Shown in pieces: positions 24,569 through 30,611 of a DNA stretch of 64,000 nt. The stretch's first letter is position 1; each line of letters opens with the position of its first letter. The position numbers and the translations under genes are program-made. The notes below the pieces were generated by a model. The model did no database searches, was not told the origin of the DNA, and saw only the letters and a program-made list of their open reading frames with translations. The stretch spans positions 1-64,000 of the forward strand of contig JAADIO010000002.1 in the NCBI GenBank assembly GCA_013151235.1. Reading direction: 5' to 3'. The stretch comes from Deltaproteobacteria bacterium (GTDB taxonomy: Bacteria; CG2-30-53-67).

Positions 24569-26140
24569 ATGAAAATCCTGATCAGTGACAATCTGGCCGC
24601 CGAAGGTATGAAAATTTTCGAGGAGGCCGGTTTTGAGGTCGATGCCCGAACCTCCACCCCGGCCGATGAGATCCTGAAGATTATCGGGGAATACGACGGT
24701 CTGGTCATCCGGAGCGCCACAAAGATTACGCCGGAACTGCTGGAGAAGGCGACCCGCCTGAAGGTCATCGGACGCGCCGGTGCCGGGCTCGATAACGTCG
24801 ATATCCCGGCCGCCAGCCAAAAGGGGGTCGTCGTTATGAACACCCCCGGCGGCAACACGGTGACCACCGCAGAACATACCGTGGCCATGATCATGTCCCT
24901 CTGCCGGAATATTCCCCAAGCCACGGCCAGCCTTAAGGCCAATAAATGGGAGAAGAAGAAATTCACCGGCACGGAACTGATGGGGAAAACTCTCGGCATC
25001 ATCGGTCTCGGGAACATCGGGAAAAACGTGGCAAAGCGTGCCCGGGGGCTCGAGATGAAGGTGGTCGGCTACGACCCCTACATGACGGAGGAGATGGCCC
25101 GCTCCCTCGGTGTACGCCTCGTCTCCCTGGACGAGATCTATGCCGAATCGGATATCATTACAGTCCACACACCGATGACACCGGAGACGAAACACCTGAT
25201 CAACCGAGATACCATCGCGAAGATGAAAGACGGCGTCCGGCTCGTCAACTGCGCCAGGGGAGGGATCATCAAGGAAACCGATCTGCTCGAGGCGCTGCAA
25301 AGCGGGAAGGTCACGGCGGCGGCGCTGGATGTATTCGAAACGGAACCGCCCGTCGACAATCCGCTTCTTGCCCTCGATAACGTCATCGCGACCCCGCATC
25401 TCGGCGCATCCACGAGCGAGGCCCAGGTCAACGTGGCCGTGATGGTTGCCAGCCAGATGGTTGAATACCTGACCACCGGCGTCGCGAAGAACGCCCGAAA
25501 CATGGCTGCCGTTTCGCCCGAGGAGATGGAGAAAATCCAGCCCTACATCTCGCTGGGGGAAAAACTGGGATCCTTCTTGGGCCAGGTCGCCGACGGGCGG
25601 GCCGACCGGGTGACCATGGAATACTTCGGTGATGCCGCCGATTTGAACAGCGAACCGGTTACCACGGCAATCCTCAAGGGTTTTCTCTCCAATTTTGCCG
25701 ACGTCAATTATGTAAGCGCCCCTTACCTTGCAAAAGAGCGGGGAATCAAGACCTCCGAAGTGAAGTCGAATGAAAGTCCCAACTTCAAGAACAAGATCAC
25801 AATTAGCGTGGAAGGAAAATATGGGAAGAACTCCATCTCCGGGACCCTGTTCAACAACCGGGACCCGCGCATCGTCATGGTCGATGGGATGACGCTGGAG
25901 GCCGTCCCCGAAGGAGAGATGCTCATCTTTCGCAACCACGACAAGCCGGGGGTGATCGGTAGTGTGGGCCGGGCGCTTGCCGATGCAAAGATCAACATCG
26001 CCCGGATGCAGTTTGGTCGGGAAGAACCGGGCGGCAAGGCGATCTCCATCGTCAATGTTGACAGCCCCGTCGATGCGGAACTTCTGGACAAACTGGCGGT
26101 CCTGCCCAATGTCGTCGATGTTCGGGTTGCACGCCTGTAA
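24569..26140 (+). CDS. serA: D-3-phosphoglycerate dehydrogenase with ACT domain
   Basis: GRAGAGLDNVD, GLGNIG, NCARGG, ALDVFE.EP, TPHLGAST.EAQ, DKPGVIG. Confidence 0.96.
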   Translation: MKILISDNLAAEGMKIFEEAGFEVDARTSTPADEILKIIGEYDGLVIRSATKITPELLEKATRLKVIGRAGAGLDNVDIPAASQKGVVVMNTPGGNTVTTAEHTVAMIMSLCRNIPQATASLKANKWEKKKFTGTELMGKTLGIIGLGNIGKNVAKRARGLEMKVVGYDPYMTEEMARSLGVRLVSLDEIYAESDIITVHTPMTPETKHLINRDTIAKMKDGVRLVNCARGGIIKETDLLEALQSGKVTAAALDVFETEPPVDNPLLALDNVIATPHLGASTSEAQVNVAVMVASQMVEYLTTGVAKNARNMAAVSPEEMEKIQPYISLGEKLGSFLGQVADGRADRVTMEYFGDAADLNSEPVTTAILKGFLSNFADVNYVSAPYLAKERGIKTSEVKSNESPNFKNKITISVEGKYGKNSISGTLFNNRDPRIVMVDGMTLEAVPEGEMLIFRNHDKPGVIGSVGRALADAKINIARMQFGREEPGGKAISIVNVDSPVDAELLDKLAVLPNVVDVRVARL

Positions 26141-26269
26141 TCCCCCGACAGAGCAAAATTTTCATCCGCACCGAAGTATCGGAAATCAGCGACATCTTCT
26201 TGTTCCTCGGCAGAATGGAATAAGGAGTGTAATCGTCGTGTGCGTCAGACACCCTGAAAGGAGTCATTG

Positions 26270-27565
26270 GTGGCAACCTTAGTTGTAGTCGGCAGTCAGT
26301 GGGGAGACGAAGGAAAAGGAAAAATCGTAGATCTTCTCACGGAAGATGCGGCGCTGGTCGCCCGTTTCCAGGGGGGACACAATGCCGGACACACCGTCGT
26401 CATCGGCGACGAGGAACATATTCTCCACCTGATCCCTTCGGGGATTCTCCATCCGGACAAAGCCTGCGCCATTGGAAATGGCGTGGTCATTAATCCGGCG
26501 GCATTGATCGAAGAGGTCAAAAAACTGGAAGAAAAAGGATGCACCGTAGACGGACGCTTCCACGTCAGCAAGAACGCCCACCTGATCATGCCCTACCATA
26601 TGGCACTGGAGATCGGCAATGAAAAGGCCCTGGGAACGGCACGGATCGGGACCACCGGACGGGGGATCGGCCCCGCCTACACCGACAAGATGGCCCGGTG
26701 CGGCATGCGCGTCTCCGATCTGCTCCATCCGGACCTCTTCCGGGAGAAGCTGAAGACAAATCTTGAATATTACAATTTCCTGATCCAAAAGAAATTCGGG
26801 GACAAAGGGCTGGAAGAGGGGCCGATCTTTGAAAACTACATGGGCTACGCCGAGCGGATCCGGGGATGGGCCGACGATGTCTCGTTGCGGCTTCGGGAGT
26901 CGATGAAGCGGGGAGAAAATATCCTGTGTGAAGGAGCACAGGGGACCCATCTCGACATCGATCACGGGACCTATCCCTTTGTGACCTCTTCCAATCCCAC
27001 GGCCGGCGGAGCCTGTACGGGACTCGGTTTCGGACCTACCGAGGTGGACCATGTCCTCGCGATCGTCAAGGCCTATACAACCCGTGTCGGCAGCGGTCCC
27101 TTCCCGACGGAACAGGAGGGAACATCCGGAGAAGAGTTCCGGCGTGTCGGTCGGGAATTCGGGGCATCCACCGGACGGCCAAGACGATGCGGCTGGTTTG
27201 ACGCTCTCCTGGTCCGTTATTCCGTCCGAATCAACTCGTTGACCTCCGGCGCCCTGACCAAACTTGATGTTTTGGACGGTTTTGATCCGATCCGCATCTG
27301 TACCGGATACAAATACAAAAACTCCCTCCTGACGGAATTTCCTACAGAGCTTTCCGTTCTGGAGGAGTGCAAACCCGTGTACGAAGAACTCCCCGGATGG
27401 AAGAAAAATACGATCGGCACAAAATTCATCACCGACCTGCCCGTCCGGGCCCGGGAGTATATCCGGAGACTGGAGGATCTCATTGAGATTCCCTTCTCCA
27501 TCGTCTCCACCGGCCCGAAGCGGGAGGAGACCATCATGATGAACAATCCCTACCGGCAGGGTTGA
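26270..27565 (+). CDS. purA: Adenylosuccinate synthase
   Basis: QWGDEGKGK, GGHNAGHT, IGTTGRGIGPAY.DK, EGAQG, TGRPRRCGW. Confidence 0.98.
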   Translation: MATLVVVGSQWGDEGKGKIVDLLTEDAALVARFQGGHNAGHTVVIGDEEHILHLIPSGILHPDKACAIGNGVVINPAALIEEVKKLEEKGCTVDGRFHVSKNAHLIMPYHMALEIGNEKALGTARIGTTGRGIGPAYTDKMARCGMRVSDLLHPDLFREKLKTNLEYYNFLIQKKFGDKGLEEGPIFENYMGYAERIRGWADDVSLRLRESMKRGENILCEGAQGTHLDIDHGTYPFVTSSNPTAGGACTGLGFGPTEVDHVLAIVKAYTTRVGSGPFPTEQEGTSGEEFRRVGREFGASTGRPRRCGWFDALLVRYSVRINSLTSGALTKLDVLDGFDPIRICTGYKYKNSLLTEFPTELSVLEECKPVYEELPGWKKNTIGTKFITDLPVRAREYIRRLEDLIEIPFSIVSTGPKREETIMMNNPYRQG

Positions 27566-27603
27566 AGAAAGACAAGAGCAAGATTTCCGGAATTCATTTT
27601 TTA

Positions 27604-27632
27604 TTGACAAACATTTCCGGATTTTGTATAGT
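27604..27632 (+). promoter_or_regulatory. Sigma-70 promoter of the tRNA operon
   Basis: TTGACA-17 bp-TATAGT with AT-rich upstream element. Confidence 0.8.
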
Positions 27633-27672
27633 TTTCAACTCTTGACCAGGGCGGATTGTTCCGCCTGATTAA

Positions 27673-27748
27673 GGGCCGTTAGCTCAGTTGGCAGAGCACC
27701 GCCCTTTTAAGGCGGGTGTCGTTGGTTCGAGCCCAACACGGCTCACCA
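27673..27748 (+). tRNA. tRNA-Lys(UUU)
   Basis: 76-nt cloverleaf; anticodon arm CCGCC-CTTTTAA-GGCGG; GTTCGA T-loop; encoded CCA. Confidence 0.95.
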
Positions 27749-27756
27749 GAACAAAC

Positions 27757-27780
27757 GGGGAATTGAAAGAATTCCTTTTT
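27757..27780 (+). terminator. Weak terminator-like hairpin inside the tRNA operon
   Basis: GGGAATT-gaaag-AATTCCT followed by T tract. Confidence 0.45.
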
Positions 27781-27791
27781 CATACAAGACG

Positions 27792-27869
27792 GTCCCCATC
27801 GTCTAGCCTGGCCCAGGACACCGCCCTTTCACGGCGGCGACGGGGGTTCAAATCCCCCTGGGGACACCA
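27792..27869 (+). tRNA. tRNA-Glu(UUC)
   Basis: Cloverleaf; CCGCC-CTTTCAC-GGCGG; GTTCAAATC; CCA. Confidence 0.95.
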
Positions 27870-27881
27870 TTATGGCTTTAT

Positions 27882-27948
27882 GGGCGGGTAGCTCAGTTGG
27901 GAGAGCATCCCGGTTTGCAAACGGGAGGGTCATTGTATCTGTCCTGCT
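27882..27948 (+). pseudogene. tRNA-Val-derived tRNA-like element: remodelled anticodon arm, no T-arm
   Basis: First 28 nt identical to the downstream tRNA-Val; anticodon arm TCCCG-GTTTGCAAA-CGGGA; then GGGTCA; no TTCGA loop and no CCA. Confidence 0.75.
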
Positions 27949-27967
27949 GAGTCGGCAATAACATCGT

Positions 27968-28043
27968 GGGCGGGTAGCTCAGTTGGGAGAGCATCGGCCT
28001 TACAAGCCGAGGGTCACAGGTTCGAGCCCTGTTCCGCCTACCA
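27968..28043 (+). tRNA. tRNA-Val(UAC)
   Basis: 76-nt cloverleaf; TCGGC-CTTACAA-GCCGA; CCA. Confidence 0.96.
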
Positions 28044-28063
28044 TAAAAATTTAAAAACACCTG

Positions 28064-28227
28064 AGAGCAGCTTTTCTGGGGGGGCGGTAGTTGACGATTT
28101 CCGGAAGTTCCTTCCGCAAATCGTCGAAATGAAAGGAAAGACATTCATCTCCTCTGCATTTCACAAAAACAGCGAAATACAGAGGGTGCATTTTCAGTTG
28201 GTCAGAATGCCGGCCTGTCACGCCGGA
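28064..28227 (+). pseudogene. Interrupted 5' copy of tRNA-Asp with ~100-nt structured insertion in the D-stem
   Basis: Leader + GGGGCGGTAGTT (28081-28092), insert 28093-28194, then CAGTTGGTCAGAATGCCGGCCTGTCACGCCGGA (28195-28227); 3' half absent. Confidence 0.8.
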
Positions 28228-28350
28228 CAAAAAAAGAGCAGCTTTTCTGGGGGGGCGGTAGTTCAGTTGGTTAGAATGCCGGCCTGTCACGCCGGAGGTC
28301 GCGAGTTCGAGTCTCGTCCGCCCCGCCAGAAAAGCTGCTCTTTTTTGTCC
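28225..28350. repeat. Inverted repeat enclosing tRNA-Asp
   Basis: GGACAAAAAAAGAGCAGCTTTTCTGG (28225-28250) versus CCAGAAAAGCTGCTCTTTTTTGTCC (28326-28350). Confidence 0.9.
28252..28328 (+). tRNA. tRNA-Asp(GUC)
   Basis: 77-nt cloverleaf; CCGGC-CTGTCAC-GCCGG; CCA. Confidence 0.96.
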
Positions 28351-28373
28351 AGGTGTCGGATGCCTTACTATAA

Positions 28374-30611
28374 TTATTGGAAATTAACCGGATCGACATC
28401 GACGGTCAGATCTATGCCGGAAGTCCCTTTGAGGCCGGTGAACCGCTTGATTCCTTCTCCCACAAGACGGTTCAAAGATCGGACGCTCTTCCCCTTGATC
28501 AGCAATTGAAACCGTTTTTTTCCCCGCAGTGTCGAGAGGGGTGCTTGGGCAGGCCCCAGGATCTCCATTCCCCGATGGTGCAGGGCGAGACTCCTTAGGA
28601 TCTTTCCAAGTTGTGTTGCGGCATGTTCCACTTTTTTCCCTGAGTTTGCGGACAGAACGAGATTGACCAACCGGGAATAGGGGGGATAGTTGAGAGCTTC
28701 CCGGAAGGAGATCTCCTCGTCATAGAAACGGGTATAGTCGTGTTCCACGGCGGCTTGGATCGAGTAGTGCTCCGGCGTATAGCTCTGCAGGTAGACCTTG
28801 CCCTTCGTCTTGCCCCGACCGGCCCGGCCGGCGACCTGTATCAGGGTCTGGAAGGTTCGTTCCCCGGCGCGGAAATCCGGGTGGTGCAGAGAGGCATCGG
28901 CATTCAGGACACCCACCGTGGTGATCCCCGGCAGATGATGTCCCTTGGTGACCATCTGGGTACCGATGAGAATATCTCCCTCCCGGGAACGGAATCGGTC
29001 CAGGATCTTCTGCGCGGCCCCCTTTCGGCGGGTGGTATCCCGGTCGAGGCGGAGAAGAACGGAATCATGAAAGGTCTTCTCCACCACTTCTTCAATCCGT
29101 TCCGTGCCGCATCCTTTGAGTTCGAGGGTCTCGGTCTTGCATTCGGGACAGGATTGAATAAGAGGGGTGGTGTAATCACAGTAGTGACAGGTGAGATGCC
29201 CTGCCCCGCGGTGGTAGGTGAGACTGACGCTGCAGTTCGGACAACGGTGGACATAGCCGCAGGTAGAACAGAGGAGGAAGGGGGAAAACCCCCGTCGATT
29301 CAGAAAGAGGAGAACCTGTTCTTTCTTCTGTAGCCCCTCTCGCAGGGCTTCGATCAGTTGCGGGGAGAGAGGATCCCCGTTTTTAACCTCCTTCATGTCG
29401 ATCAGGCGGATCTCCGGGAGTGGGCGTGCATCGATTCTCTGGTTCAGGGTCAGCAAGCGATATTTCCCCGACCGGGCATGGTGAAAGCTTTCCACCGAGG
29501 GGGTGGCGCTCCCCAGGATCACCGTCGCATGATTCTGCTTGCCCCGGACCACCGCCAGATCCCGGGCGTGATAGCGTGGCGTCTCCCCCTGCTTGTAGGT
29601 AGTGTCGTGTTCCTCGTCGACGACAATAATGCCGAGGTGGGAAAAGGGGGCGAAGACGGCCGAACGTGCGCCGATGGCGACGCCGGCCTCGCCCCGTCGG
29701 ATCCGCCGCCACTGGTCGACCCGTTCCCCTTCGGAAAGACCGCTGTGGAGTACGGAGACCTTGTCTGCAAAACGGGAGCGGAAGATCCGGACCAGTTGCG
29801 GAGTGAGTGCGATCTCCGGGACGATGACGATGGCCTCTTTTCCCCGGGCAAGGGTGGTTTCAATTGCCCGGAGATAGACTTCCGTTTTTCCACTTCCGGT
29901 GACCCCGTGGAGGAGAAAAGGTTGAAAAAGCCCCTCCTTAAGCGAGCCGTTGATCTGCCGGACGGCCTTTTCCTGTTCCTTCGTAAGTCTCGGAGGGGAG
30001 GACTGTTGGGGCTTCTCCCCGGCGAAGGGGTCCCGCAGAACCGTTCGTTCCTCTCTGCACAGGAACCCGTTTTTCACCAGACGTCGCAGAACATCGGGGC
30101 CGGTACCGGTCCGGGTCCGGAGAAAAGCCGAAGTATATTCTCCAGGGGATGCAAGAAATGCCTTCAGGACCCGAACCTGGGCCGGGGTTTTTCGCTCCAG
30201 TCGGGGCAGCTGCTTCCGGATCTCTCCGGCAGGGAGATTCATCCGGTAAACCCTTTCTCTTTTCTCCCGTACCGTGTCGATCCCGGCAGGAAGGACACAC
30301 CGGATCACGGTACCCCAGGGGGCCAGATAGTAGTCGGAAATCCAGCGGGTCAGACGAAGCATCTCTTCCGTCAGGAGGGGAGCTTCATCGAGAACATCGG
30401 AGATGTCCTTGAGTTTCGGAACAGAGCTTTCCGGAATCCGGGAAACGAGATAGCCGATGGTTTTCCGGCGTCCAAGGGAGATCCGTACCCGAATACCGGG
30501 GAGGGCGGATTTCCTCAGGGAAGAGGGAATAGTGTAGTGAAAGATCTTTCGCACGCCCGGCACCACCACCTTGGCAATGCCGGGTCGGATGTCTTCTCCC
30601 CGGGCTTTCAT
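28374..30611 (-). CDS. priA: Primosomal protein N' (replication restart helicase)
   Basis: LHGVTGSGKTEVY, VPEIALTPQ, VDEEHD, LNRRG, Cys-rich Zn region, GTQMV.KG, QVAGRAGR. Confidence 0.97.
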   Translation of the reverse strand: MKARGEDIRPGIAKVVVPGVRKIFHYTIPSSLRKSALPGIRVRISLGRRKTIGYLVSRIPESSVPKLKDISDVLDEAPLLTEEMLRLTRWISDYYLAPWGTVIRCVLPAGIDTVREKRERVYRMNLPAGEIRKQLPRLERKTPAQVRVLKAFLASPGEYTSAFLRTRTGTGPDVLRRLVKNGFLCREERTVLRDPFAGEKPQQSSPPRLTKEQEKAVRQINGSLKEGLFQPFLLHGVTGSGKTEVYLRAIETTLARGKEAIVIVPEIALTPQLVRIFRSRFADKVSVLHSGLSEGERVDQWRRIRRGEAGVAIGARSAVFAPFSHLGIIVVDEEHDTTYKQGETPRYHARDLAVVRGKQNHATVILGSATPSVESFHHARSGKYRLLTLNQRIDARPLPEIRLIDMKEVKNGDPLSPQLIEALREGLQKKEQVLLFLNRRGFSPFLLCSTCGYVHRCPNCSVSLTYHRGAGHLTCHYCDYTTPLIQSCPECKTETLELKGCGTERIEEVVEKTFHDSVLLRLDRDTTRRKGAAQKILDRFRSREGDILIGTQMVTKGHHLPGITTVGVLNADASLHHPDFRAGERTFQTLIQVAGRAGRGKTKGKVYLQSYTPEHYSIQAAVEHDYTRFYDEEISFREALNYPPYSRLVNLVLSANSGKKVEHAATQLGKILRSLALHHRGMEILGPAQAPLSTLRGKKRFQLLIKGKSVRSLNRLVGEGIKRFTGLKGTSGIDLTVDVDPVNFQ

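Follow-up and report, generated by a model that had tools for sequence, protein, structure and literature searches.

Background

SegB is a homing endonuclease of the GIY-YIG family that is encoded in a transfer RNA (tRNA) gene cluster and recognizes a motif of the tRNA T-loop (PMC2330249). It is further described as driving the inheritance and segmental amplification of tRNA gene regions (PMC13096335), with segB homologs enriched within 1 kb of tRNAs and SegB spreading along with the flanking tRNA genes (PMC2330249, PMC13096335). The Ssn enzymes, as presented in the main text of their report, are single-domain GIY-YIG nucleases that cut single-stranded DNA beside hairpin repeats flanking their own genes; in these repeats (NTS/SRM) the sequence of the stem is essential and that of the loop is not, and the word tRNA does not occur in that main text (PMC11893778). 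Here we consider a tRNA operon of a deltaproteobacterium (GTDB lineage CG2-30-53-67) in which truncated look-alikes of tRNA-Val and tRNA-Asp stand directly before the corresponding intact genes. It lies in the first 64,000 nucleotides (nt) of contig JAADIO010000002.1 of assembly GCA_013151235.1, a stretch referred to throughout as the window.

We consider it probable that both were left behind by a small selfish cassette with its seat in tRNA genes, and that its nuclease gene has been lost from the window. What the sequences show is the architecture of the copies, the overlap between nuclease gene and tRNA copy in relatives, the recurrence of the arrangement at five tRNA species in several lineages and the co-distribution of copies and nuclease gene. 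In unrelated lineages the cassette, in which the coding end overlaps a tRNA copy and tRNA arms are swapped for one hairpin, is found again at Asp, Val, Ile, Ala and Asn genes. It would explain why truncated look-alike tRNAs precede real genes in essential tRNA and ribosomal RNA (rRNA) operons: these are apparently the footprint of a tiny nuclease cassette and not a host invention. In the literature searched, which did not extend to supplementary files, hairpin-substituted tRNA copies beside bacterial mini GIY-YIG genes were not found described. The relic in the window is itself of moderate interest; more is to be gained from the class of cassettes that it represents.

Truncated copies of tRNA-Val and tRNA-Asp

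The Lys-Glu-Val-Asp operon is flanked by purA (26267-27565, + strand) and priA (28374-30611, - strand) and has the following features:

27604..27632, + strand, sigma-70-like promoter of the tRNA operon (TTGACA, 17 nt, TATAGT; 11/12 consensus matches)
27673..27748, + strand, tRNA-Lys(ttt) (ARAGORN; Rfam 66.5 bits)
27792..27869, + strand, tRNA-Glu(ttc) (ARAGORN; Rfam 59.6 bits)
27882..27932, + strand, Val-like truncated copy, starting twelve bases past tRNA-Glu
27968..28043, + strand, tRNA-Val(tac) (ARAGORN; Rfam 67.7 bits)
28064..28092, + strand, Asp-like piece one: 17-nt Asp leader plus Asp positions 1-12
28093..28192, + strand, hairpin-rich 100-nt insert inside the Asp-like copy
28193..28227, + strand, Asp-like piece two: Asp positions 11-45, with the true GTC arm
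28225..28251, + strand, tRNA-Asp leader, 5' arm of a long leader-trailer helix (repeats I1, I9)
28252..28328, + strand, tRNA-Asp(gtc) (ARAGORN; Rfam 71.2 bits)
28326..28350, + strand, trailer, pairing with the leader as the 3' arm of their helix, with a T run behind it

An earlier note made from the letters of the window had pointed to the extra Val and Asp copies and proposed an ARAGORN run, a read-level check and a comparison of related operons. The copies are confirmed by identities of 28/28, 29/29 and 34/35 to the intact genes. ARAGORN calls the four intact tRNAs and neither copy; Rfam gives the same four as the only tRNA genes of the operon (59.6-71.2 bits), and as regards a known RNA family it returned only tRNAs and sub-threshold noise over positions 26000-30000.

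The Val-like copy matches positions 1-28 of tRNA-Val at 28/28 bases over 27882-27909 and retains the 5' strand of the acceptor and the D arm (27882-27907). Its anticodon arm has been swapped for a 19-nt arm at 27908-27926, with a TCCCG/CGGGA stem of 5 base pairs and a 9-nt loop, which is followed by GGGTCA (27927-27932), the start of the variable loop as in tRNA-Val. The remainder up to tRNA-Val, a spacer of 35 nt reaching 27967, is unrelated to the tRNA, and the T arm and CCA are both missing, as the earlier note had it. This copy is not a tRNA by the Rfam model either (21.8 bits, below the gathering score of 29), and it folds no better than shuffled sequence (z = -0.65).

The Asp-like copy is likewise real, though not the single unit that had been supposed, as it comes in two pieces with the 100-nt insert between them. 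Positions 28064-28092 are identical to 28235-28263 at 29/29 bases (repeat D4), and positions 28193-28227, which run from the D loop through the anticodon stem, match 28262-28296 at 34/35. An anticodon hairpin had been claimed for both copies: the Asp-like one keeps its true GTC arm and is without the hairpin that is the hallmark of the related copies, while the corresponding arm of the Val-like one is the substituted hairpin. The Asp-like copy has no Rfam tRNA match. The insert is made of hairpins, such as 28093-28125 (inverted repeat I4), and the stretch 28093-28234 folds with z = -3.6. Searches of the source genome for further copies of the insert gave just insignificant short matches. The boundary between the insert and piece two resembles sequences of relatives. 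The left junction of piece two (TGCAT-T/A-T before TCAGTTGG) is common to the window and to a hairpin-bearing Asp copy of a related genome (G007), and the right end of the insert there (TGCATT, about 28188-28193) aligns with the last codons ahead of the tail that nuclease genes of relatives derive from the tRNA (alignment A2). The insert may be what remains of a trailer and nuclease gene. As a separate observation, a unit of about 190 nt with long terminal inverted repeats, resembling a miniature transposon, lies between the Asp-like copy and the Asp leader in G007 (L018:1745-1935) and in a metagenome contig (L073:1195-1385).

These half-copies of the tRNA-Val and tRNA-Asp genes are confirmed as real, and the repeat identities are beyond chance. 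Misassembly is an unlikely source, because the repeats measure 28-35 nt, their flanks are unique, and contigs of two other metagenomes span the Val-like copy. A 207-nt contig of metagenome X3 spans 27840-28040 and a 110-nt contig of X1 spans 27887-27995, both at about 90% identity and both crossing the Val-like copy and the start of tRNA-Val. Among contigs of X1, X2, X3 and X5 there is no cover of 28059-28247, hence no independent support for the Asp-like part, and in a search of sequencing runs the share of words in any run did not exceed 0.18. The source genome (G000) is a draft of 2.62 Mb in 73 contigs.

A shared hairpin in tRNA copies of related genomes

For comparison we used 14 species genomes of the phylum, the searches at 'phylum' and 'class' level having returned the identical set; nine of these, including the source genome, belong to one family (f1) and five to another (f2). 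The Lys-Glu-Val-Asp operon is conserved in both families with differing spacers. Two genomes of the same genus, G001 and G002, gave no assembled Lys-Glu-Val-Asp locus, the best matches being other tRNAs. Comparison of the operons recovered hairpin-bearing copies in f1 genomes. Asp-like copies of this kind precede tRNA-Asp in G004, G006 and G007, with degenerate versions in G005, G008 and, by eye, G003. Val-like copies with the same hairpin occur in G004 (two in tandem, as an 85-nt unit present twice), in G007 (one) and in L073-L075. An Ile-like hairpin copy stands before tRNA-Ile in the rRNA spacer of the source genome, G001 and G006, the last having two. In the source genome it lies in the 16S-23S spacer (G000:C31, about 27800-27881, - strand; L055:1028-1082, - strand) and carries TCCCGG...CCGGGA. 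Upstream of this Ile-like copy there is another partial repeat, of its 3' flank, and the same is seen in G001 and G006. The earlier note's view that a recurring architecture points to a non-random system is thus upheld, since the same type of copy stands before Val, Asp and Ile in related genomes.

What unites the Val, Asp and Ile copies is one common stem, TCCCG(G)...(C)CGGGA, which replaces the anticodon stem and encloses variable loops. The real anticodon stems of Val/Asp and Ile are unlike this stem and unlike each other. A strict pattern combining D loop, D stem and hairpin had 12 matches in 5 of the 14 genomes (5/9 in f1, 0/5 in f2), and a reversed control pattern had none in the 14. One of the 12 matches (G001:C87) is outside a tRNA context, and the source genome has two tRNA-context copies of the hairpin only. 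Presence and number of the copies are patchy among genera. Positions T8 and A14 are universally conserved in tRNAs. T8 is changed to C in three copies, namely the Ile copy of the source genome, the Asp copy of G004 (L017, about 1729) and the Val copy of the X3 contig (27889), and A14 is changed to C in the Asp copy of G006.

Among 50 distinct TCCCG/CGGGA hairpins the sixth pair is Watson-Crick in 39 (G-C 15, A-T 15, C-G 7, T-A 2), wobble in 5 and mismatched in 6, with loops that vary freely; these instances are related, and the counts do not represent independent events. The hairpin appears to be maintained as a structure because the sixth pair is mostly complementary across four pair types, and judging by this pattern of invariant core and free loops it behaves as a selected structure.

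A mini GIY-YIG gene that ends in a tRNA copy

In relatives, an ORF (open reading frame) for a GIY-YIG protein has its 3' end formed by the Asp copy with the hairpin, as seen in G004, G006 (L062:88-336, a layout spanning a contig break) and L073. The intact gene encodes 83-84 amino acids (aa), comprises the catalytic domain only and lies directly behind a working tRNA gene. The G004 gene, of 84 codons (L017:2124-2375), starts just past an Asp-like gene and its trailer and ends in a further Asp-like copy. Its last codons derive from the D arm and the hairpin (TCC CGG), the stop codon falls within the hairpin loop, and in this gene-ending copy the T arm has also been swapped for a second hairpin with the same stem. 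After the real tRNA-Asp of G004 comes an internally deleted remnant of the gene, fused to the hairpin-bearing copy that precedes the next Asp-like gene; this fused remnant shows a route by which a copy without an ORF comes to precede a tRNA. In G007 the nuclease gene is truncated, and the metagenome contig L073 holds the whole operon with Val-like and Asp-like copies and an intact nuclease gene.

PF01541 is the sole strong Pfam match of the relatives' ORFs (81-93 aa, n=4), which indicates single-domain proteins; T5orf172 reached the Pfam cut-off in 2/4 of them, at 20.5-21.2 bits. The nearest solved structures are the UPF0213 proteins 1zg2 and 1ywl. The three closest database homologs (69-83% identity) end in LVR[S/T/P]SR, the translated D arm and hairpin. 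Relatives of the gene occur in 7/9 genomes of f1 and 0/5 of f2.

A scan of metagenome contigs yielded 47 loci encoding relatives of the nuclease, several of them near-duplicates, with about six lineages represented. A same-strand tRNA (Asp, Ala-GGC, Asn or Gly) ends at most 160 nt upstream of the gene in 29/47 loci, the strict hairpin lies at the stop codon in 11/47, and in 11/47 a hairpin-substituted 5' copy, defined by at least 17/20 bases like the real tRNA and then the hairpin, stands 41-179 nt ahead of that tRNA (Val 3, Ala 5, Asn 3). The full layout of 5' copy with hairpin, spacer, real tRNA, gene and 3' copy with hairpin is present in L076 (Ala), L093 (Ala) and L106 (Asn). Hairpins flank the gene on both sides in these loci and, for example, in L099, and in L084 the gene runs into a tandemly repeated Ile-type 5' copy. 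In 6/47 loci the stop codon falls within a genuine tRNA downstream of the gene (Pro, Ser, Lys, His). Stop codons of the nuclease gene placed in this way, in the 5' part of an intact tRNA, are seen in L087/L088, L095, L109 and L113/L115, in some cases as a TAG at positions 8-10 of the tRNA.

Several observations concern other small GIY-YIG genes. The sole small GIY-YIG gene of the source genome (G000:C71 1-700, L059) is flanked by repeat copies containing CCCTGAGCGTGTCGAAGGG. A CCCTGAGCGTGTCGAAGGG-like motif is found inside the T arm of the G006 Asp copy (L062:366-395) and after the stop of a G003 GIY-YIG gene (L067), and this repeat may be a second hairpin-repeat type tied to small GIY-YIG genes. 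A second small GIY-YIG lineage (34-40% identity) is found in L064 (G005), L068 (G004) and L069 (G001), where its genes follow tRNA-Met(cat) at a distance of 70-160 nt and have no tRNA-derived tail.

Proposed origin of the copies in the window

The intact cassette, as it occurs in relatives, consists of the nuclease gene flanked by partial copies of its upstream tRNA, in which the TCCCG hairpin with its one covarying pair takes the place of the anticodon arm and at times of the D loop or T arm. The tail of the gene (...LVR-T/S-SR) is read from the D arm of the copy and the 5' strand of the hairpin, with the stop in the loop. By analogy with Ssn and SegB, the putative nuclease would recognize the hairpin or the tRNA gene and make breaks, and repair between tRNA copies could then spread or duplicate the cassette. 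Recombination between the repeated D arms would later delete the gene, leaving 5' copies before the working tRNA. Within an operon such relics would be transcribed, here from the predicted promoter at 27604-27632, and tRNA processing would presumably dispose of them as spacer RNA. The window contains a partial near-identical tRNA copy and has no adjoining GIY-YIG ORF, and because of this absence we place it as a relic and not as a member of the cassette class. In the Asp-like relic the anticodon arm was probably copied back from the neighboring real gene by gene conversion, which fits because this arm is 34/35 identical to the real gene 69 nt away. Of the origins that the earlier note had listed, the scar of an element targeting tRNAs comes closest, in the specific form of a nuclease cassette. 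In annotation, relics of this kind may pass for tRNA pseudogenes or for new RNAs, and they also break assemblies at tRNA genes.

Several points weigh against a cassette origin. The GIY-YIG gene is absent from the window locus, and the source genome has UvrC and a 39%-identical paralog on contig C71 only. In 28044-28265, tblastn with the G004, G006 and G007 proteins found at best a four-residue match (E = 0.42), and a decayed nuclease ORF in the 100-nt insert is thus unrecognizable at the protein level. The link of the Asp-like copy to the cassette is suggested by its 8-nt junction and its position. For the Val-like copy, no locus has the nuclease gene directly beside a Val-type copy, and the apparent link comes from the shared hairpin and from occurrence in the same operon in G004, G007 and L073. 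The Val-like hairpin of the window has one stem mismatch, at the sixth pair; the X1 and X3 contigs have C at 27921, which makes the substituted stem perfect. The Asp-like relics are apparently old, being present in most f1 genomes, an age that fits slow neutral decay and equally retention for a host function. The working tRNA in the cassette keeps a normal anticodon arm, so that a simple homing model based on cutting this arm would be self-harming. The genomes compared are related and not independent, and the cassette is known here from sequence alone, its nuclease activity, target and mobility being predictions.

A more speculative extension, which we put forward with little confidence, is that a family of mini GIY-YIG nucleases recognizes the TCCCG/CGGGA hairpin as its site and lands in tRNA genes, bringing along a spare working tRNA ('disrupt-and-rescue'). 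The relics in the operon and the rRNA spacer might then stay cleavable in trans, for instance by the C71 paralog or by incoming cassettes, and promote recombination by which tRNA and rRNA operons are remodeled, as hot spots; or else they might have been co-opted as processing spacers.

Alternative explanations

The copies might instead be host-functional, co-transcribed tRNA-like RNAs kept by selection as toxin decoys, as modulators of processing or folding, or as sponges. They lie inside the operon downstream of its promoter and would therefore be transcribed, their 5' parts are near-identical to the cognate tRNA, the hairpin stem is conserved with variable loops, Asp-like relics persist in most genera of the family, and in the X3 relative the 5' part and hairpin are less changed than the spacer behind them. 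However, the part that an anticodon nuclease would need is the very part replaced in the Val-like copy and in all the relatives' copies, the conserved tRNA core has changed at T8 (to C, three copies) and at A14 (to C, one copy), and the Val-like fold is no better than shuffles. Presence and copy number are also patchy, and the same pieces form the ends of nuclease genes in relatives, with gene conversion accounting for the 5' identity. We therefore regard this explanation as unlikely, and the decoys or modulators listed in the earlier note are not supported, given the replaced anticodon arm, the mutated core, the patchy distribution and the membership of the copies in a nuclease gene in relatives.

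No better placed is the idea of pseudogenes from plain duplication or slippage, with no cassette involved and the hairpin shared through gene conversion or chance. The tandem 85-nt unit of G004 indicates that unequal recombination is active, the Asp-like copy of the window has a true anticodon arm like a fresh duplication, and the window is without the nuclease gene. Against this, the same 12-nt stem is found in Val, Asp and Ile copies at two separate loci, metagenome lineages that are unrelated have it in copies of Ala and Asn, the gene family next to it is the same in every case, and the reversed-pattern control had no match; a cassette-free duplication thus appears improbable to a similar degree.

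As tRNA genes are common integration sites, and several 3'-end tRNA repeats do occur elsewhere in the source genome, attachment-site scars of a lost integrase-type element or prophage also come to mind, but we reject them as very improbable: the duplicated parts are 5' parts, the wrong end of the tRNA, the copies are intergenic within a single operon, at 12-70 nt from its genes, integration leaves the hairpin substitution unexplained, and there is no recombinase among the five neighboring ORFs scanned, all housekeeping (purA, priA, phosphoglycerate-dehydrogenase-like, ParA-like and aminotransferase), which fits the absence of an integrase given in the earlier note. Hardly any weight is due to an assembly artefact in which tRNA repeats were collapsed or chimerized, since the 73-contig draft, its several contigs terminating in tRNA repeats and the uncovered stretch 28059-28247 stand against repeats of just 28-35 nt with unique junctions, contigs of two other runs spanning the Val-like copy and tRNA-Val, and the same layouts in six other genomes and many metagenome contigs.

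Operon signals and other tRNA repeats

The region around the operon has 3 promoter-like sites against a shuffle mean of 0.5. At the other end, a leader-trailer helix of about 26 base pairs encloses tRNA-Asp (fold z = -10); the trailer with its T run is likely the operon terminator, its predicted stem enclosing the tRNA. This helix is maintained at Asp despite changed sequence in six genomes of the family (L013-L018), and family f2 has an ordinary terminator hairpin and short plain spacers at the same place. There are three occurrences of a 15-nt motif built around the palindrome TTCCGGAA: at 27580-27594, upstream of the promoter; at 27610-27624, within its spacer; and at 28094-28108, in the 100-nt insert's first hairpin.

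Elsewhere in the source genome and beyond the window, three tRNA-Ser genes (G000:C10 65100-66300) each have their final 19-20 nt repeated without a change about 190 nt further downstream. The associated elements (L054:520-675, 889-1048 and 1265-1426) start with sequence complementary to the gene end, changing in step with each tRNA-Ser, and match the Rfam RtT model at 25.9-30.5 bits, below the 45-bit cut-off. Partial 3' tRNA copies also lie downstream of genes for Leu(cag) (C27 86556-86705, - strand), Glu(ctc) (C21 67694-67715) and Ala(ggc) (C9 9549-9639). In the Leu copy the T loop is split by hairpins of about 110 nt, and contig C9 ends inside the Ala repeat.

Comparison with known systems

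Attachment sites of integrases are comparable to the copies described here in that a mobile element leaves part of a tRNA gene repeated next to the complete one. Such att duplications repeat the 3' part and mark the borders of islands of kilobase size that have a recombinase; unlike them, the present copies are 5' parts inside an operon, are hairpin-substituted and have no recombinase in the five flanking ORFs. The tyrT-rtT arrangement of Escherichia coli (RF00391) offers a likeness of another kind, in that partial tRNA copies beside a gene, in the same transcript, are released as spacer RNA. In RtT it is the 3' end of the tRNA that is repeated, downstream of the gene, whereas the copies here represent the 5' part and lie upstream. 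We know of no nuclease gene associated with RtT, and positions 26000-30000 gave no match to RF00391.

The SegB of phages T4/T6 is similar in being a free-standing GIY-YIG gene lodged among tRNA genes. SegB is a protein of about 220 aa with a DNA-binding part. It is also a phage protein, whereas the gene here encodes 83-84 aa with the catalytic domain only, resides in bacterial chromosomes and overlaps a tRNA copy. Hairpin-substituted tRNA copies are not described for SegB in the accessible portions of the two reports (PMC2330249, PMC13096335). The likeness to Ssn lies in the small single-domain GIY-YIG protein, in the cognate hairpin that often flanks the gene on both sides and in the combination of an invariant stem with free loops. 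Ssn repeats are dispersed in hundreds of copies and, in the main text of their description, are not reported in tRNA genes (PMC11893778). By its architecture and distribution, from which it is known here, the cassette class thus resembles both SegB and the Ssn-type hairpin nucleases, and would connect the homing endonucleases of tRNA clusters with the hairpin-guided mini GIY-YIG nucleases.

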